NCBI GenBank assembly: GCA_964016885.1
Contig: OZ024741.1
Span: forward strand, 392,398,001 to 392,462,000
Length of the DNA: 64,000 nucleotides
Source of the DNA: Eledone cirrhosa
Lineage: Eukaryota
Direction of reading: 5' to 3'
The stretch's first letter is position 1, and every line of letters starts with the position of its first letter. Below the pieces are notes generated by a model that had not been told where the DNA came from, ran no database searches, and saw only the letters and a program-made list of their open reading frames with translations. The translations under genes were made by a program, and so were the position numbers. Positions 1 through 61,775 of this stretch are shown here, piece by piece.

Positions 1-234
1 GGTGCCACAGCAAAAAAGCACCCAGCCCACACTGTAAAGTGGACGTGTAGGCGCCACGAAAAAGCACCCAGCACTCACTGTAAATGAGGTTGGTGTTAGG
101 GAGGGCATCCAGCTGTAGAAATCAAGCCAAAATCAGTTCCTGTATGAGCAAGACATGGTCAGCCGACCAGACACTGCCCACAACAGGACAACCCGTCTAA
201 CCCATGCTAGCATGGAAGAACGGATGTAAAACGG

Positions 235-270
<36 letters not shown>
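1..270 (+). mobile_element. 3' end of an RTE LINE or RTE-tailed SINE with (GAT)n tail
   Basis: Near-identical to the 3' UTR of the RTE copy at 52440-52690 (ggtgccac..aaaagcacccagc..aacccatgctagc..(gat)n). Confidence 0.85.
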
Positions 271-18900: not shown

Positions 18901-21900
18901 ACTAATTGCAATAATATGTCTATATATCATTAATTATTATTTAGAACTTGTATTTTAATTAAGGTATTGAAAGATGATATTTTATGTTTGACAATGTTAT
19001 TGAAATATAAAATAAACTAAAATAACCTGTTGTAAGAAAAATATAGTATATCTAAAATAATTCTTCTTTTTAAATTTTTTATAAATATAGAATCCTTATC
19101 ATCATCATTTAAAATCTGCTTTCCTTCTTAGCAAAGGTTGGTTGGGTCATCAGCAGACCAGGACGGTACTCAAAACAGAGGTACTGATCCCACAATGGGC
19201 TGGGAGACTGCATCTCACTTACAAATGTTCCTGCACTCCACTTAGTGCTTAGATGGGCTGGTGGTCTGCAACTCGCTTGCATAAAATCCCTCACACAGCT
19301 GAATACATTTTATCATGACACCAGCACTAGGGATGCTCTTATGTCTTTGACACAGCTGAACAGTCCTCTCAACTCATTGTTTGGTAGATTTTCTATGGCT
19401 GGATGCCCTTCCTATCAACAACCACTTTACAGTGTTTCCTGTGTGCATTTATTTTGTAAATCATCAATACTAGAGGGGTTAGCTGAAGGGTCCTCCTGAC
19501 CCTTTGTCTGGCAAACTTTCTACAGCTAGATGCCCTAATATTTTTATAGAAGATATTTTGTGTTAAAAAATCTATGGACATTAGTTCAAAAAGAAATGTG
19601 AAATATCTGATAAACATTTCTTATTTAGGCATGGGATCTTATGTATGTAAGAATAATAGATGTGTGGTTATAATATGCATACTTAACAATATCAGTCAGA
19701 AGTTACATCTAAAATAAAGCTACATCTTAGAAATCAGTGTTCAAGAACATCGGGGTTCTTGGCATAGAACCTAACATGTATGATAATAAGCAGAGAAATA
19801 AAGTGTTAGAAAAAAACAACAACAAAAAATACTCAAAATCACAAACATATTAAAAGCAATCTAAAATAATTGTAATAATACTTGAACTAAAAATATTTAA
19901 TTTCCAAAACCATTTACTTTCAAAGAGTAAGGCGATGAATAGAATTATAGTAAGCCACTGGCTTGGAAACAAGCTGCAACTTTAAATTGTATGGCTCTGA
20001 ATTCCATCTAAAATACATACATTGGTGTTATTTCACATTGTAATTCATAATTTGCTGCTTTAATTTAAATATAATTTGAATAATTATAAAATATGCAATT
20101 TGAAATAGGACAAGGAAGGCAAACAATAAATAGCAAAACAAAATAACAATGGCAAGAATATAGGTGGAATAATGGTGATAATTGGCTTTGCAGCAGTGAG
20201 ACAACAATGAAATTTATGGCAGATTCACAAATATTGGAATAGATGTTTTGATATACTTGTGTATCTAGAAATATTTGAAGAAGTGTGTCTGAACTAAAGT
20301 AATCTACCCTTATCCAACAATTTGATGTACCAAGCTGACTAGATGTTTTGTGCAGTGCATCAAAAGGAGAGAAAAATGTGAGAAACTGAAAATATTGGGG
20401 GAAGAGGGAATAATAAAAATGGTGATGCTTTAACAAATAATGTATTTTTAAAAAATCTTATAAAAGTACTTTCCTTTTATTTAAAAAATCTTTAATTTCT
20501 TTTATCTTAAAGAAATCTAAAAGAATATGTAATTTAATTTGAAGCTATTTGTTGGTTAAAAATTACTTTGTCAAGCTATTTATAACATTAATTAAATGCA
20601 TTTAATTCAAATATAAAGTTTGTAATATCCCAAAGAAATATTGATATGCTGTTTGAGTCTGATTCTTGAAAAGCTGAAAATTATATAGAGTTATTTATTA
20701 CATTAGTTTTAAAATACAGCCACTAAGTATGAATCTGAAAAGTTTTTTTATCCAAATAGGAAATGTTAAAGTACAATTGATATTGTTCCAAATTAGAATG
20801 CTTTGTTCTGATTGTACTAATGATCAAATATGTTATTTTATGAGAGACAAAGGTGAAATAACATAAAAATGGACATACAGTAATGTATAAGAGCACATAA
20901 AGGCATGTAAAGGTTAGTGTTTAGCATTAAAATGATAGTCTATTCAAGGTTCCTAGAAAATCTGATGACTATGTCTGATAACATAGAATTGTAGATTCAG
21001 GCAAGAAAGATAATACAATAGAGGTGAACGATATGTTTATGTATAATAAGCATACGCAAGATATTTTTGCTGAAGGTACTTTATGCTGTAATCATATTAC
21101 AACTACCCCAGTAATCATGAGAAAATTGCCAAATATTAGTTTTTCAACATTTTTATTCACCATCAGTGAACAATTACTCAGTCAGTATTCAGACAAAGAA
21201 GCATATACAATATGTTTATGTATAATATGCATAAGACTCACTGTTGGTACTTTAAGCTGTGGTCATGTCACAGGAATCATGTGAGAACACCAAATACCAG
21301 TATTTTGGGATCTTTATCTATCATCAGCAGTGATGTTTTACCCACTGAGTAAGTAAGCTAATAACTTATATATAGATTTCAGAGATGCTCATTTGCATAT
21401 AGTGCAGGCTTGATGGGCTAGAATTAATTAACAGTAGCACAAACACAGTGTGATTCAGAATTGAAGAATATTTTTGAAGTAGTTGTGATATGATCATAAG
21501 TTAAAATACCAACAGTGAGACTTATGTTTTTTATGCATAAACATATTGTATGTTTCCATATATACCTCCATTGTATTTACTTATTTACTCCAGTACCAAG
21601 AAAATGTCATTGATGATGGATAAAGATCTTGAAATACTAGTATTATTTGGTATTCTCACATAATTATTGAGGTATTTGTGATATGATCATAAGTTAATAT
21701 ATCCACAGTAAGACTTATGTATGTTTATTATACACAAGTAACTATACTTATTATACACAAGAAACTATATCTTTCCATATATGACTTTATTCTGAACCAT
21801 GCTGTATTTGTGCTATTGCTAATACATAATAAAATGTCTGTAGTGGATTTAAAGAAATTAATATCTATTAGTTGGAAGTCCACTGACATTTCCAGTCAAC

Positions 21901-44971: not shown

Positions 44972-45740
44972 CTACAGAATAGAAGATAACATTAAATATA
45001 TTTTTAAAATCATTTGAATTAATATAAATAATCAATTTGTTATAATTAAAAATAGAATCAATATATTTGTGATATGTTGTATCTCTAACATTTGTAGACC
45101 CTTTCACACTGGTGAGATAGTTGTGTTTGATGTTCAGTTTCAACATCTATAGATCTATACTTATTACTAATTTTTCACAAAATGTAATTAAATAATTATC
45201 ATAATAATCACCATCTTTTAATGCTCATTTTCCCTGCTAGCACAGCTGGATGGGTCATCACAGACAAAGTCAATACTTGCTCAGTGAAGCTGGGAGCTCA
45301 TATCTTGCTTACATTCATTCCAGCATTCTGCATTTTATCATGGCATCAAGGTTAGGGAAGTTGTCATGTCTTCGACAAAGCTGTTTTTGGGGGCGTGAGG
45401 TTTTCTGGCTGGATGTCTTTCATATCCCTAACCACTTTACAGAGTGGAGTTGATGTGTTTATTGTGTAGATCACCAAAACTAGAAAAGTTGTCATACTCT
45501 TGACACAACTACAGAGTAGCATCCACTCAACTTTGTTTGGCATTTAAATCTAAGAATTGGCACTATTGAGTTCCTTATTAAGAATAAACCCTACCTCAGA
45601 ATACATTTCTTGGTGTATTTTGAAAAATGTATATATATATATAGCATATTTAGCAATATACTGTATGTTTAATTAAAAACACCTTGAAGACCGCTTGCAA
45701 ACCATCTAGGAGAGTTACCATTCCGAATAAATTGGTGCAG

Positions 45741-46025
45741 GGTAGAGAAGTCCCCTAAGTCCAGTAAGACAACTTCCCTAGTGCTGGTGGCATGAATAAA
45801 AGCACCCAGTCCATGCTGTAAAAATGGAGGGGTGGATAGGGTCCCTGAGTCCAGTAAGACGACCTCTCTAGTGCTGGTGGCATGAATAAAAGCACCTAGT
45901 CCATGCTGTAAAATGGAGTGGTAGAGAAGGCCCCTGAGTCCAGTAAGACATCCTCTCTAGTGCTGGTGGCACAAATAAAAGTCCATGCTCTAAAGTGGTG
46001 CTGGTGTTAGGAAGGGCATCCAACC
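45741..46025 (+). repeat. Three ~90-bp tandem repeats forming the 5' leader of the downstream RTE
   Basis: Units start at 45741, 45831 and 45920; the array ends in ggtgttaggaagggcatcc. Confidence 0.9.
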
Positions 46026-49000
46026 AGTATATATACTACTGCCAAAAACTATGAGCACAACAAATGAGAATTGCAACAACTGCGTCAACAGCAATAACAC
46101 TAACCATGTTAGGGCTGCGCACGGTAGTGGGGGGGGGGGGGGGGGCTGGTGAGGCCATGTGCGAGAACCTCCCGACCTTCATAAAGCAATCGCACAACAA
46201 CAACTGTGTCAACAGCAATAACACTAACCATGTTAGGGCTGCGCATGGTAGTGGGGTGGCTGGTGAGGCCATGTGCGAAAACCCTCCGACCGTCATTGAG
46301 CAATCGCACTACAGGAAAAAGAACAAGAATATGAAGACATCGCGTCTCAGAGTTGCCACACTTAATGTTAGACCTGGTGAAATATTGGAGATGCTGGAGA
46401 GAAGGCATGTGGATGTGTGCTGCGTGCAAGAGGTGAGATGGAGAGGTGTCTCTGTAAGATTAATCGCAGGCAAACATCTTAGTTATAAGCTTTTCTGGGT
46501 GGGTAATGATGATGGGTTAGGTGGAGTAGATATTTTACTGGCTGAGAGATGGATCGATAAGACAATAGAGGTAGTTTGAGTTAGTAATAGAATAATTAAG
46601 CTTAGATTAGCTGTAGGCAAGAGACTACTGACAATCATCTCTGCCTATGCTCCCCAGGCAGGCCTAGGTAAAGAAAAGAAAGACTGCTTTTACGAGCAAC
46701 TTTTACAAACAGCCACAATGACAGAGGACGGAGACATCGTTATGCTAGCAGGAGACTTCAATGTTGGACATTGAAGGGCAGCTCCAGGATGAACAGCTCA
46801 GGTTGAAATGGGGTACATGGTGGGCACGGTTACGGCTCAAGAAATGAAGGAGTAAGGCTTCTTGAATTTTGTGATGCAAGTGCACTAACCATTTGCAACA
46901 CTAATTTCCAGAAACCTGCCAACCACCTAATAACCTACAAATCAGGCAAGCACATATTGACTTCTTGCTAGTTAGGCAGCGGGACAGGCAGATGGTGTCA
47001 AATACCAAGACATACCCCGGGGAAGAATGTACCCTATAGCATGGGTTAGTTGTTAGTGATATCTCAGTAAGCAAGAGACAGAATGAGACATACAGGAAGG
47101 TGTGGAAAAGAAAGGTCTGGAAGCTAAAAGACCTTTCATTAAAATATAAATTTTATGACGAAAAAGAAGACAATTTAGAGTCGTATGACATAGATGATAA
47201 CTGGAATTTCTTATGTGACAACTTACTGCAGGCTACTGAAGAAACTTATGGCTGGAACAGAGCTCCAACCAGACAGAGAGTGACCTGGTGATGGAACAGC
47301 ACAGTAGATAGGGCCATTAGAGACAAAAGACTAGCATGGAATGCTTGGAAAAATTGTGGGAGTAGAGAAGGATATAAAGCCGCTAAGAGAGAAGCTAGAC
47401 ATCAGGTGTAATTAGCACGAAGAGAGGCTGAGAGTAGGAGGTTTGACAATGTTCTGCAATGGGAAAATCAGAGATGTGCGGTGTTCCGCATTGCAAGGCA
47501 GTGTGTCAGTGCAAATCAGGATGTTGTTGGAGATAAGTGTGTCTGGAATGATGCTAGTGTACTTAGTGTCACGAATGATCAGAAAAAGGAGGCCTGGAAA
47601 TGTCATTATGAGAGACTGATGAATGTGGAGAATGAATGGGAGAGAGAGAAATTACCCCCAGTAGATCCGACAAAGGGACCAGCTATTGAGATTGACGAAT
47701 ATAGGGTCCAAGAGGCGATTAAGGAAATGAAAAATGGTAAGGCCGCTGGACCGTCGGTGATAGTTGCTGAGATGCTGAAGATATCAGGGCACATTGGCAC
47801 TAAACTGGTTGCACGCATCATCAATCAGGCTATATATGGTGGTGTCATACCCAAAGACTGGTGCAGCAGTATTCTCAATTGCTACAAAGGTAAAGGGGAT
47901 GCTCTGGAAAGGAGCAATTACAGGGGCATAAAACTGATGGATCAGGTTATGAAAGTGGCAGAAAGGATATTAGCACAACTAATTAGAGAAAGGGTCAAAC
48001 TAGATGAGCTGCAGTTTGGTTTTGTGCCTGGAAAAAATACAACAGATGCCCTCTTCTTAGTGAGACAACTACAAGAGAGGTCTTAGAGAAGATTAGCTTT
48101 TGTTGACCTAGAGAAGGCCTTTGATAGGGTACCCCAATTTGTCATCTGGTGGTCCCTAAGGAAACTAGGTGTTGAGGAATGGCTTGTGAGGACATTGCAA
48201 GCTTTGTACAGAGGTGCTGTCAGTAAAGTGAGGGTAGGAATGGAGTTTAGTGAGGAATTCCAGGTACAAGCAGGAGTACATCAGGGTTCGGTCCTCAGCT
48301 TGCTCTTGTTCATTATCGTCCTCCAAGCCATAACAGAGGAGTTTAAGACTGGCTGTCCATGGGAACTTCTCTATGCTGACGATCTGGTACTTATAGCAGA
48401 ATTAGTAGAGGAGCTAGAGAATAAATTCTGGCTATGGAAACAGCAGTTGGAATTAAGAGGACTGAGAATGAACCTAGCTAAGACAAAAGTGTTGATGAGT
48501 AGAAAAGAGGACAAAACTCTGATTCCGTCAGGGAAATGGCCATGTTCGATATGCAGAAAAGGAACTGGTATAAATTCTATAAAATGTACACAATGCAGAT
48601 CTTGGGTAGACAAGAGATGTAATGGGATAGCAGACAAACTAACAGGTGGGGAAAAATAAGTATGCAGTAGATGTACAGGGAAATTTGACAGTAGAAGTCG
48701 CATTGATAGACACATTTTTCAAATGCAAGTGTGTTCTATAGAAAGGGTTGATAGCTTCCGGTACCTAGGTGATCAGATTAGCATGGGAAGGGGGTGTTCC
48801 GAGGCCATAGTATCTAGAATAAGGATGGATTGGAAGAAGCTTAGGGAGTTGCTTCCTCTACTGACAAAGAAGGGTTTCTCCCTGCATACGAGAGGCCGGT
48901 TATATGATGCCTGTGTGAGGTGCGTGATGCTGCATGGTAGTGAGACATGGGCAGCAACTGCAGAGGATATGCGATGGCTGGAGAGAAATGAGGCAAGCAT

Positions 49001-49332
49001 GGTCCGTTGGATGTGCAATGTCAATGTGCGTGAATGACCAAGCATGGATGTGTTGAGAGGGAAACTGTGTTTAAGAGGGATAAGTTGTAGTGTGCGGGAG
49101 AGAAAACTGTGATGGTATGGACATGTGATGCGCATGGAGGATGACCGCTGGGTAAAGAAGTGCCAAGAAATGTCAGTTGAAGGAAGACATAGTAGAAGCG
49201 GACCACAAAGCTTATGGTGGAGATGACGAAGGACCGTGACAAGTGGAGAGATGCTGTGCTGAATGGGGCCCATCCCACTCTTACAAGCAGGGAAAAGCGG
49301 ACATAAAATGATGATGATGATGATGATGATGA
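45741..49332 (+). mobile_element. Near full-length RTE LINE (APE endonuclease plus RT with Cys-rich insert), inactivated
   Basis: ATG at 46051; RVATLNV, CVQEVRW, SAYAPQ, AGDFN; NYRGIKLM, QFGFVPG, GVHQGS, LLYADDL, CSICRKG..C..C, YLGD; several stops and frameshifts; (GAT)n tail. Confidence 0.95.
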
Positions 49333-49688
49333 TTATATATATATATATATATATAAATATATACATCTATAACATTCAATTCTAATAAATAGGGTCATGA
49401 GTGGACAAACCCCTGGTAAAAGAGGTATGAAGATGATGGTTGAGTAACATCAGGAAGTGGACAGAGAGGATTTTTGATAACCTGTTTGCATTTTTTGCTG
49501 GGTCCTTACAAAATTATGGATTTTGATTGATTGAAATATAAAATAAAAAATATATATAATAAAATAGATATATTTTTTATAAAGGATAAAAATACTTGGA
49601 TACAAAAGCAAACTGGAAAATATTTTAAACATTCACTTGAAGTAGGTCAATAATTTAAGGATTAATAATAAAATGAAATTATACTCAC

Positions 49689-50503: not shown

Positions 50504-53342
50504 TACCATAAATACTTGAATATAAGTCTAGGAATATATAACCAAAAAACTGATGGTAAAATGGAAGGTCAGCTTATATTCTGAGTCAATATTTAATGAT
50601 TTTCACCAACTTCAAATTCTACGTAAATAAGCTTCTAAAATATCTGGAGTGATTAATTCATAATGAAACACTGCTTTTCTATATTTACTATATCGTTGTG
50701 AGTTTGCTATGTGCATTGTGTTGAGGACATTTTCAACAAATTTTTATTACTTTTTAATACATAAATATCCCTTCACAGATATGCATACACACACATATAG
50801 CTGCCGAGATGCTGAAGGCATCTGGGTCTGTAGGTCACACTATAACCACACGTATTGTTAACCAGGTAATACTAGAAGGTATCATACCAAAAGATTGGTG
50901 CAGTAGCATCATTGTCAACTGCTACAAAGGTAAAGGCGATGCACTAGATAGAGGAAACTATAGAGGTATAAAGTTGATGGACCAGGTCATGAAAGTAACA
51001 GAAAGAGTTATAGCACAGCTGATTAGGGACCGGGTGAAAATAGACGAGATGCAATTTGGGTTTGTACCAGGAAGAGGCACCACTGATGCCCTCTTCCTTG
51101 TGAGGCAATTACAGGAAAAGTACCTAGCTAAAAGTAAGCCACTCTACTTGGCATTTGTCGACCTTGAGAAAGCTTTTGACAGAGTTCCACGTGCTGTAAT
51201 CTGGTGGGCTCTTAGAAAACTAGGAGTAGATGAATGGCTTGTGAAAGCCGTACAAGACATGTATAGGGGGAGCAGTCAGCAAAGTTAGGATTAGCAATGA
51301 GTATAGCGAGGAATTTAGCGTACAGTTGGGGTCCACCAGGGCTCTGTTCTTAGCCCCTCCTGTTCATCATAGTCCTGCAGGCAATAACGGAGGAGTTTAA
51401 GACCGGATGCCCATGGGAACTCCTGTATGCTGATGACCTCGCACTCATAGCTGAATCTATGGTAGAACTAGAGAATAAATTCCAAACTTGGAAGCAGGGA
51501 CTAGAAAGAAAGGGTCTCAAAGTCAACATGACAAAGACTAAGGTCCTTGTAAGTAGATGAGAAAACAGAACCCAGATCCCCTCAGGGAAATGGCATTGCT
51601 CAGTATGTAGGAAAGGTGTAGGTAGGAACTCCATTCTCTGCCCCAAATGCAAACAATGGGTACACAAGAGATGTAGCGGGATCTCAGGAAGCTTAATTAA
51701 GAATGTAGGCTTCACATGCAGCAGCTGTGCTGGGACAGCAAGCAGCAAACAGCCACAGGAAACAAGTACCACCAATCTCTGGGAGGGCTCTGTAGAAACA
51801 GTAGACAGCTTCTGCTACCTAGATGACCGAATTAGCAGCGGATGTGGGTGTTCAGAAAGTACAATAACTAGGGTAAGAACGGGATGGAAGAAGTTTAGGG
51901 AACTACTACCACTGCTAGCTGCAAAAGGCTTCTCCCTCAGAATGAAAGGCAGATTGTATGATGTGTGATTCCGAACAGCGATGTTGCATGGTAGTGAGAC
52001 CTGGGCGTTGAAGGTGGAAGACTTACGTAGATTAGAGAGAAACGAAGCCTGCATGCTCCGATGGATGTGTAACAGTAATATATGTGAACAACAAAGTATA
52101 AATGAATTGAGAGAGAGACTGAGCATAAGAGGAATCAAATGCTGTGTGCTGGAGAGGCGGTTGCGCTGGTATGGACATGTGATGCGTATGAAGGATGACA
52201 GCTGCATAAAAAGGTGCAGAGCACTAGAAGTTGATGGAAACCGCGGAGTCGGGAGACCCAAGATGACCTGGGATTAGGTGATAAAAGCCAACCTTACCCA
52301 ATTACACCTCTCAAAGGCAATGACACACGACCGTGACCTCTGGCGTCACGCAGTAATACAGAGTACCCGACCTCCCATGGGTACAAGCTGAAGCATATAG
52401 ACAATATGCCCCCACACCCCACACCGCAAGGTGGTCGTGGAGGTGCCACGGCATAAAAGCACCCAGCCCACACTGTAAAGTGGACGTGTAGGCGCCACGA
52501 AAAGCACCCAGCACTCACTGTAAATGAGGTTGGTGTTAGGAAGGGCATCCAGCTGTAGAAATCAAGCCAAATCAGTTCCTGTATGAGCAAGGCATGGTCA
52601 GCCGACCAGACACTGCCCGCAACAGGACAACCCGTCTAACCCATGCTAGCGTGGAAGAACGGACGTAAAATGGTGATGATGATGATGATGACACATACAT
52701 GTGCATACATACACGTACACAGACTGTTTTTCTCCGTGACTTAAACATACCTTTTCTTTCAATCTTGTTTTGTTTTATTTCGCTTCCTTACTTGCTCTCT
52801 CTTTCCCTCTCTTTTTCTCGCTCTGCTTCTCCTCTCCCTCCCTTACTGTCTCTTCCCCCCTCTTCTACTCTAAATCCTTATACAGTGTACTCTTATTTGA
52901 TCTCTTTCAACCATTCCCTATTCATTTTGATCTCCTCCTAGTGTTTTTAATGATCATCATAATGGTTAAAGAAAATCTTTTTTTAAAATAATATCTTAAA
53001 CTAAAATATAACTCCATTTCTTTATATTATGTTAATATAGAATTTTTTCATGCCTTTTTTATTTTCTAATTATAAAGAAATAAAATTTTCTATAAATGTG
53101 GGAAGAGATTATTTTATTTTCTCTTAGGGGTTTTGTATGTAGTGGATTTGCGAAAGAAAAACTATACTCTAAACAACATTTAAAACTTCATAAATATGTT
53201 ATCCGCTCATGAGAATTTCAAAACCACACCTAATGTGTTGATTAGCAGCCTCGGCTTATAAATGGGGTTTGGATTTTTGCCCATTTCTCAGACATAAAAT
53301 AGGCTTAAATTCAAATCAGATTATATTCGAGTATATATGGTA
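50504..53342. mobile_element. Tc1/pogo-like non-autonomous element interrupted by an RTE insertion
   Basis: Inverted termini TA-CCATAAATACTTGAATATAAG and TTATATTCGAGTATATATGG-TA. Confidence 0.6.
50798..52690 (+). mobile_element. 5'-truncated RTE LINE with complete 3' UTR
   Basis: RT motifs NYRGIKLM, FVDLEKAFDRV, LLYADDL, LRWYGHVMRM; (GAT)n tail; probable 7-bp TSD acacata at 50791-50797 and 52691-52697. Confidence 0.95.
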
Positions 53343-56896: not shown

Positions 56897-57260
56897 TCAT
56901 CATCTTCATCAACATCACCGTTTTACGTCTGTTCTTCCACGCTAGCACGGGTTAGACGGGTTGTCCTGTTGTGAGCAGTGTCCAGTCGGCTGACCTTGTC
57001 TTGCTCATACAGGAACTGATTTTGGCTTGATTTCTACAGCTGGATGCCCTTCCTAACACCAACCTCATTTACAGTGAGTGGTGGGTGCTTTTTCGTGGCG
57101 CCTACACGTCCACTTTACAGTGTGGGCTGAGTGCTTTTTTGCCGTGACACCTCCACGACCACTTTGCATCTCATTTCTACAGCTGAGTAAACTGGAGCAA
57201 TGTGAAATAAAGTGTCTTGCTCAAGGAAACAACACATCACCTGGTCTGAGAATTGAACAC
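56897..57260 (-). mobile_element. CORE-like tRNA SINE with RTE-derived tail (family B), head truncated
   Basis: Minus strand: B-box GTTCAATTC, ccttgagcaagacacttt..., then the RTE 3' UTR module and (GAT)n. Confidence 0.82.
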
Positions 57261-61394: not shown

Positions 61395-61775
61395 GGAGGC
61401 ACATGGCTTAGTAGTTAGAGCATTGGTCTTGCAATCGAAAGGTTGTGAGTTCAATTCTCAGACTGGGTGATGTGTTGTTTCCTTGAGCAAGACACTTTAT
61501 TTCACATTGCTCCAGTTTACTCAGCTGTAGAAATGAGATGATAGGGACTGAGGTCCATATCATTCGACTGCAAAGTGGGGATGGAGGTGCCACGGCAAAA
61601 AAGCGCCCAGCCCACACTGTTAAGTGGACGTGTAGGCGCCATGGAAAAAAAGCACCGAGCACTCACTGTAAATGAGGTTGGTGTTAGGAAGGGCATCCAG
61701 ATGTAGAAATCAAGCCAGAATCAGTTCCCGTCCCACCCTTGCAAGCTGGGAAAAGTGGACGTAAAATGATGATGA

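Follow-up and report, generated by a model that had tools for sequence, protein, structure and literature searches.

Tandem putative mini-pseudoknot units and an adjoining conserved hairpin in RTE-type elements of Eledone cirrhosa: a candidate cis-element for protein recognition

Described systems and the module

Pieces of RTE 5' UTRs have repeatedly been kept in SINE bodies and in bipartite elements (PMC5786205, PMC7245038). The SINEs with RTE 5'-UTR fragments described by Kojima (2018/2020; PMC5786205, PMC7245038) share a tRNA head, an internal 5'-UTR piece and an RTE tail with elements of the present genome. The conserved domain of that work is located directly upstream of the array analysed here, and the module is a different piece, the core motif of which gave 0 matches in the supplement (PMC5786205). 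In the text of PMC5786205 that was covered no structure is proposed for those elements; here, autonomous LINEs hold the piece in the 3' UTR and have a leader without it. By eye, the published RTE/Ceph domain opens with a further 23-nt stretch of mini H-type form, loop 3 of which reads YAAA; squid SINEs and an amphioxus RTE do not differ in this stretch (PMC5786205, supplement).

To initiate TPRT, the R2Tg protein binds to a small pseudoknot in the 3' UTR (PMC12222951). This pseudoknot is like the module in being small, in its A-rich strand and in belonging to a non-LTR element, and it is proposed as the functional model. It differs in clade and sequence, and it is single, terminal and solved, whereas the module is tandem, movable and predicted. 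Twister (RF03160) and HDV-like ribozymes heading RTEs are found in the same leader region as the module (PMC8501958, PMC6765202). In contrast to them, the module has no Rfam match, no UA-A cleavage junction beside a P2 stem and no fixed 5' end, and it also occurs in 3' UTRs.

Tandem small H-type pseudoknots with stems of 3-6 bp and short loops are known from plant-virus 3' UTRs and picornavirus leaders. Their likeness to the module is one of geometry only, with neither a sequence nor an Rfam match. In the literature searched, no paper described a pseudoknot like those drawn for the module in SINE bodies or RTE leaders, the search having left aside Repbase, patents, Ohshima and Okada 1994, Gogolevsky 2008, bioRxiv supplements and Fig. 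S4 of PMC5786205. The module sequence itself is probably already catalogued, and its structure may be described in sources outside the search.

Location of the module in LINE families and SINEs

The window is a stretch of 64,000 nucleotides of E. cirrhosa DNA. Family A is a decayed RTE-type LINE, the 5' leader of which holds a 90-bp tandem. A tandem module of this kind had been recognised by a sequence-only reading of the window, and its presence was confirmed: the array (45740-45981, + strand) comprises 2.7 units and is located directly upstream of the AUG at 46051, which opens the endonuclease frame. Each unit consists of an outer stem with the pattern PK0, followed by PK-A and PK-B. PK0 of unit 1 (45755-45770, +) retains its GTC/GAC stem, and its CTG/CAG stem is broken family-wide (CTA/CAG or TTA/CAG in each of the five most frequent types, from 30 copies of the family); intact PK0 patterns are located at 45845-45860 and 45934-45949 (+). 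PK-A is found at 45781-45806 and 45871-45896 and, truncated, at 45960-45981 (+), and PK-B at 45807-45828 and 45897-45917 (+). Unit 3 of the window copy has lost 7 nt of PK-A/PK-B. A further hairpin with its predicted pairing strand, PK-C (46006-46043, +), absent from the earlier drawing, follows the array. Behind the decayed single ORF (endonuclease and RT; 46051-49333, +) come a short tail, from which the module is missing, and a (GAT)n end.

At least 40 genomic copies matched the array at 88-100%, with a variable number of units, mostly 2-3. In an old family the PK0 counterpart kept the outer stem and GTC/GAC and lacked the CTG/CAG stem. A piece at 45697-45731 (+), complete in other family-A copies, resembles by eye sequences in the supplement of PMC5786205. 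In family-A copies extending upstream of 45697 (e.g. L005, L013, L554), an HDV-like order can be drawn by eye in the conserved RTE 5' domain, which gave no Rfam match. About 4 of some 50 family-A copies stop just before this domain, and several unlike upstream sequences join there.

The comparison copy at 52434-52530 had been given as the homologous module of another RTE. It is located not in a 5' leader but in the 3' UTR of the young family B, between the stop codon (52389-52391) and the tail. The window holds the 3' half of the ORF of a 5'-truncated family-B copy (50790-52391, +), followed by two 49-bp PK-A/PK-B units and PK-C (52434-52568, +); behind these, a start-like ATGAGCA, apparently vestigial, precedes the tail and (GAT)n. 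Families A and B share 64-69% DNA identity. The junction between ORF and module was kept at 97-100% in 40 copies. Among 20 full-length family-B copies, the conserved motif was located 3.0-3.2 kb past the endonuclease start in all 20, PK-B was found behind the ORF in 19, and the module was absent from the element's own leader in all 20, two upstream matches being separate insertions. An intact ORF of 1041 aa was present in 2 of the 20. It encodes PF03372 and PF00078 domains in a single frame, that is, an AP endonuclease and an RT with no ORF1; together with short 3' UTRs, (GAT)n ends and a by-eye match of the upstream domain to the supplement of PMC5786205, these features are of the RTE type. 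A PHD-like finger (PF00628, at cut-off) directly follows the RT domain in the intact protein (L477:1407-4529). The leaders of family B (L240-L268) are mosaics, variable upstream, with a CCAAT box and a (CTA)n tract and no module.

The module was also located 3' of the ORF in a third group, C. A family related to C, not linked to the C tail, had a leader without the module in 2 copies. A-type tails followed an ORF end without the motif in 12 cases and the motif without an ORF end in 43 cases (SINEs); 7 had neither and 0 had both. In a non-random sample of 307 motif-bearing elements, 139 had an ORF end upstream and 50 a SINE head, 2 of these having both, and an ORF start was located downstream in 21. 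The start-like ATGAGCA stands behind the motif in family B as it does in family A. Because this vestigial start context follows the motif, the family-B arrangement suggests, on sequence grounds, a captured 5'-UTR piece.

A tRNA-headed SINE at 61402-61760 (+) contains B-type units, PK-C and a family-A-type tail. This element and 39 + 9 further copies combine a tRNA head, an RTE 5'-UTR piece and an RTE tail, as expected of bipartite RTE-derived SINEs. The non-coding SINEs retain at least one whole unit plus PK-C. In the CORE-like part of the SINE body (61520-61545) a PK-B look-alike is found, CAG...CTG-TAGAAA with a CTCA/TGAG stem, behind which most copies carry a perfect 9-bp hairpin. Further module copies are located at 1-270 (+), about 56930-57230 (-) and 19371-19421 (-). 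Since no more than 2 copies of the motif came from twenty arbitrary 10-kb stretches, the searches were targeted, and the samples are therefore non-random. Outside this genome, PK-A/PK-B were encountered in sequencing runs of three other organisms alone, and were absent from the contigs of other animals. An octopus-SINE form of PK-A had only 4 genomic matches. In viral contigs one match was obtained, by chance.

A self-cleaving ribozyme or an exonuclease block that defines the RNA 5' end, possibly a degenerate twister, is a very improbable explanation of the module. PK-B sits where the twister 3' half sits in foreign elements, with a likeness visible by eye, and a 40-nt family-A piece, chosen post hoc, beat base shuffles (0-31 of 1000). 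The twister ancestry of the unit was suggestive by eye and not significant (109-1177 of 2000). A hammerhead likeness of PK0 was rejected by eye, its core being incomplete. The Rfam search called for in the sequence-only reading, which had described an RNA device it did not recognise, matched no family for the window copy and locus L014, and gave no ribozyme, the twister covariance model included, at E up to 10. The nested double pseudoknot, P1.1, P4 and catalytic C of HDV-like ribozymes were not recovered in the module, which had no Rfam match and in which their order could not be drawn by eye. If the RNA were cut between ORF and tail, family B would be broken, yet 20/20 of its copies span the module. 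Insertion 5' ends were scattered and not fixed at a cleavage site: of 27 family-A arrays selected solely on PK-B, 18 continued upstream into the conserved RTE domain, and true truncations in B and C were scattered, apparent clusters being variants of unit number. By contrast, 9/9 twister-headed RTE copies in this genome, used as positive control, began at AA with unrelated flanks; they scored 39.8-49.8 bits, below cut-off, and the leader of this lineage lacks the module. Its copies (L299-L307) show a type-P1 twister-like structure, then a hairpin of their own, followed by GTAAAA; the loop might pair with a GCTA further downstream. Since insertions span the module, no fixed 5' end exists and no Rfam family matched, self-cleavage of the module is unlikely. 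Of the four functions offered earlier, 5'-end processing and exonuclease resistance thus fit poorly, as the module is internal, stands between ORF and tail in family B, and has no 5' ends clustered there; recognition by the RT or protein fits best.

Pairing and covariation of the drawn stems

Patterns were counted by a loose H-type rule, fixed after the drawing had been seen, against 1000 dinucleotide shuffles. Under this post-hoc rule, three non-overlapping mini H-type patterns were present in unit 2 (reached by 0/1000 shuffles) and three at 52430-52532 (1/1000), and units 1 and 3 were weaker under the same post-hoc rule (27/1000 and 21/1000). The proposal that every unit forms a string of pseudoknots held for the complementarities of unit 2, but not for unit 1, with its broken PK0 stem 1, nor for unit 3, short by 7 nt. 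The same topology had been claimed for the 52434 module, in which PK-A stem 2 of the second unit contains a C-A mismatch, common to the family. Nested folding energy was ordinary (z = -0.66), no better than that of shuffles.

PK-B stem 2 was counted with an anchored script, MAFFT having shifted the 3' strand of PK-B by one base. The 565 anchored units include tandem copies, and some types derive from few loci. Pairing at the core positions of stem 2 was found in 546, 547 and 560 cells; one pair occurred as C-G, U-G or U-A, and another as A-U or its swap U-A. At least 4 contiguous pairs were formed in 15/15 types seen at least 4 times, which was equalled by 70 of 10000 permutations. The three stem-2 variants singled out by the sequence-only reading proved to be family-level differences and not noise of single copies. 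At the flanking pair, C stood opposite G in 38 of the first 100 genomic matches listed (counted by eye), versus 2/362 when the base was A. The drawing of PK-B with 5 bp leaves a loop 1 of zero length, which the classic H-type fold disallows. PK-B stem 1 (CAG/CTG) was nearly invariant, with 44 U-G variants (TAG/CTG) and 20 breaking CAA variants among the 565 units. In PK-A, stem 1 showed double changes at 3/7 pairs among 16 representative types (162/10000 permutations). Stem 2 (GGTG/CACC) did not covary: it was paired in 78% and did no better than swapped partners (4652/10000 in fixed register, 451 in free register).

Covariation in both crossing stems was not found; double changes occurred at 3/7, 0/4 and 0/3 pairs, in one stem only, and the crossing stems of PK-A, PK-B and PK0 had no double change in any. 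Selection on RNA structure is thus supported for PK-B stem 2 and PK-A stem 1, but not for the crossing stems. Two hairpins explain every double change, because the two covarying stems do not cross. Both stems were complementary with feasible loops in most units, PK0 of unit 1 and PK-A of the B2/C types being broken, and energies were marginal. In rough energies (stacking plus an assumed penalty of 7.0 or 9.6 kcal), PK-B and PK0 were level with or below a single hairpin in stability, and PK-A was level or better. The pseudoknot topology of PK-A, PK-B and PK0 is a plausible model. Since types share ancestry, the number of independent compensations is small, namely about 3 for PK-B stem 2, 2-3 for PK-A stem 1 and 1 for PK-C.

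The array may also be a passenger, in which case only PK-C would matter and PK0, PK-A and PK-B would be VNTR-like weak hairpins expanded by slippage, with little or no selection for pseudoknots. Unit numbers from 1 to many fit this explanation, as do the lineage restriction of the units, nested folding no better than shuffles, and the breakage of crossing stems in successful young families. Free minisatellites exist as well; module units were expanded to repeats of 36, 48 and 89 bp (L486, L487, L516-L527, G000:C9:11736589-11737235). However, most of the substitutions that separate families in PK-B stem 2 keep the pairing, and where one end pair of this stem was lost, the other end was paired in 160 of 186 units. 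The retention of a whole unit in SINEs also argues against a passenger, which we regard as improbable.

LINE promoters typically comprise tandem units within the leader, and an internal promoter or enhancer with incidental pairing would act at the DNA level. Binding of regulators has been suggested for conserved RTE 5' pieces (Kojima 2018, PMC5786205). The double compensatory changes and the one-sided G-U changes on the sense strand point instead to RNA, and neither a 3' location nor a Pol III SINE context needs a Pol II promoter. A DNA-level element therefore hardly comes into consideration.

PK-C and the proposed role

As judged from sequence, the best-conserved part is PK-C, the AGGAAGGGCATCC hairpin with a predicted pseudoknot that adjoins the module. 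The hairpin has the form GTY-A-GGA/TCC-RRC, and its loop AGGGCA is predicted to pair with TGCC at 46040-46043. The 13-mer core had 140,253 exact genomic matches, versus 4 for the control. The motif (46006-46024) was also found in metagenome contigs (at least 120 loci) and in animal-like contigs inside prokaryote assemblies; it is kept in RTE leaders of other animals. The animal-like RTE sequence in contigs of prokaryote assemblies (L314, L369, L407, L408, L312, L313) is probably host contamination. For comparison, 27 foreign rows, perhaps 8-9 families, were picked by eye from 105 loci, and 42 other rows served as control. Of 314 own copies, 307 had T-A beside the bulged A, and of 27 animal-like contigs, 26 had C-G there; among the controls, which are chance bacterial matches, this position was paired in 13 of 42. 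In an old family of this genome the hairpin has an A-G mismatch.

The loop, itself fixed by the search pattern, can pair with YGCY 13-19 nt downstream. This stem 2 had at least 3 bp in 292 of 314 own copies versus 142 expected, 262 of them at one offset, and at least 4 bp in 25 of the 27 foreign rows picked by eye, versus 6 expected. At 4 bp or more no excess was found in own copies (75/314 versus 69 expected). Changes in stem 2 were wobbles only, in 11 G-U cells. The dominant SINE-like family of the metagenomes kept the hairpin and not stem 2 (7/116 versus 14 expected). This family (L081-L200) has a sharp start at CCTTC, which could pair with the purine loop of the motif in place of the downstream strand.

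PK-C may act in translation. As a ribosome element in leaders, it would place the start codon for cap-independent initiation, which is required once a ribozyme has cleaved; in 3' UTRs and SINEs, it would tether the RNA to ribosomes near nascent RT, like an Alu domain. In 26 of 30 family-A copies, an AUG follows the stem-2 strand at a distance of 6-7 nt; in three foreign contigs with a frame that leads into the endonuclease, the distances are 9, 11 and 20 nt. In five foreign contigs, PK-C stands directly behind a twister-like core (31.9-48.8 bits, below cut-off), and ribozyme-headed leaders support translation (PMC8501958, PMC6765202). However, family B translates with no module in its leader, no ORF stands behind the module in the SINE, and other contigs, which are probably non-coding, have a spacing of 21-166 nt to the AUG. 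RTE 5' pieces are retained in a hagfish SINE despite its Alu domain (PMC7245038). Overall, a translation element is a rather unlikely explanation; of the four earlier functions, translation is one that PK-C, as the neighbour of the module, may have.

The reading preferred here, held tentatively though with some expectation, is that the module could be a structured cis-element for recognition by the RTE protein. One module location was found per autonomous family: 5' of the ORF in A, where it is absent from the 3' end, and 3' of the ORF in B. The module would be a handle by which the endonuclease-RT protein of the element recognises its RNA irrespective of position; it would be needed once per RNA and would work together with the 3' tail to select the RNA as template. 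The ancestral place would be the 5' leader, where PK-C follows the twister-like core in other animals, and family B would have taken up the module at its 3' end from a bipartite element (5' UTR plus tail). PK-C is predicted to be the core, with the PK-A/PK-B units as lineage-specific accessory hairpins; for these to form H-type pseudoknots, which would be marginal, Mg2+, adenine triples in loop 3 or a bound protein are predicted to be necessary.

In a wider and less probable version, RTE LINEs across animals would carry PK-C as a pseudoknot cis-element required once per RNA and able to work in either UTR or within a SINE. This would be the reason why RTE-mobilised SINEs keep a 5'-UTR fragment, and PK-C would also position the start codon after twister cleavage. 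As part of this joint reading, and with equally guarded expectation, the tandem pseudoknot array would be an elaboration of PK-C in the present lineage.

Template RNAs of RTE-1 have been built with both cognate UTRs (PMC13708176). RTE proteins are under engineering as RNA-templated gene writers, and a published structural reason for templates carrying both UTRs was not found. The module bears on the question why RTE-mobilised SINEs retain an internal 5'-UTR fragment. The present genome constitutes a natural transplant, with the element 5' of an ORF, 3' of an ORF and in SINEs, together with an intact young ORF and ready compensatory variants. This setting makes the question testable with a 45-nt core.
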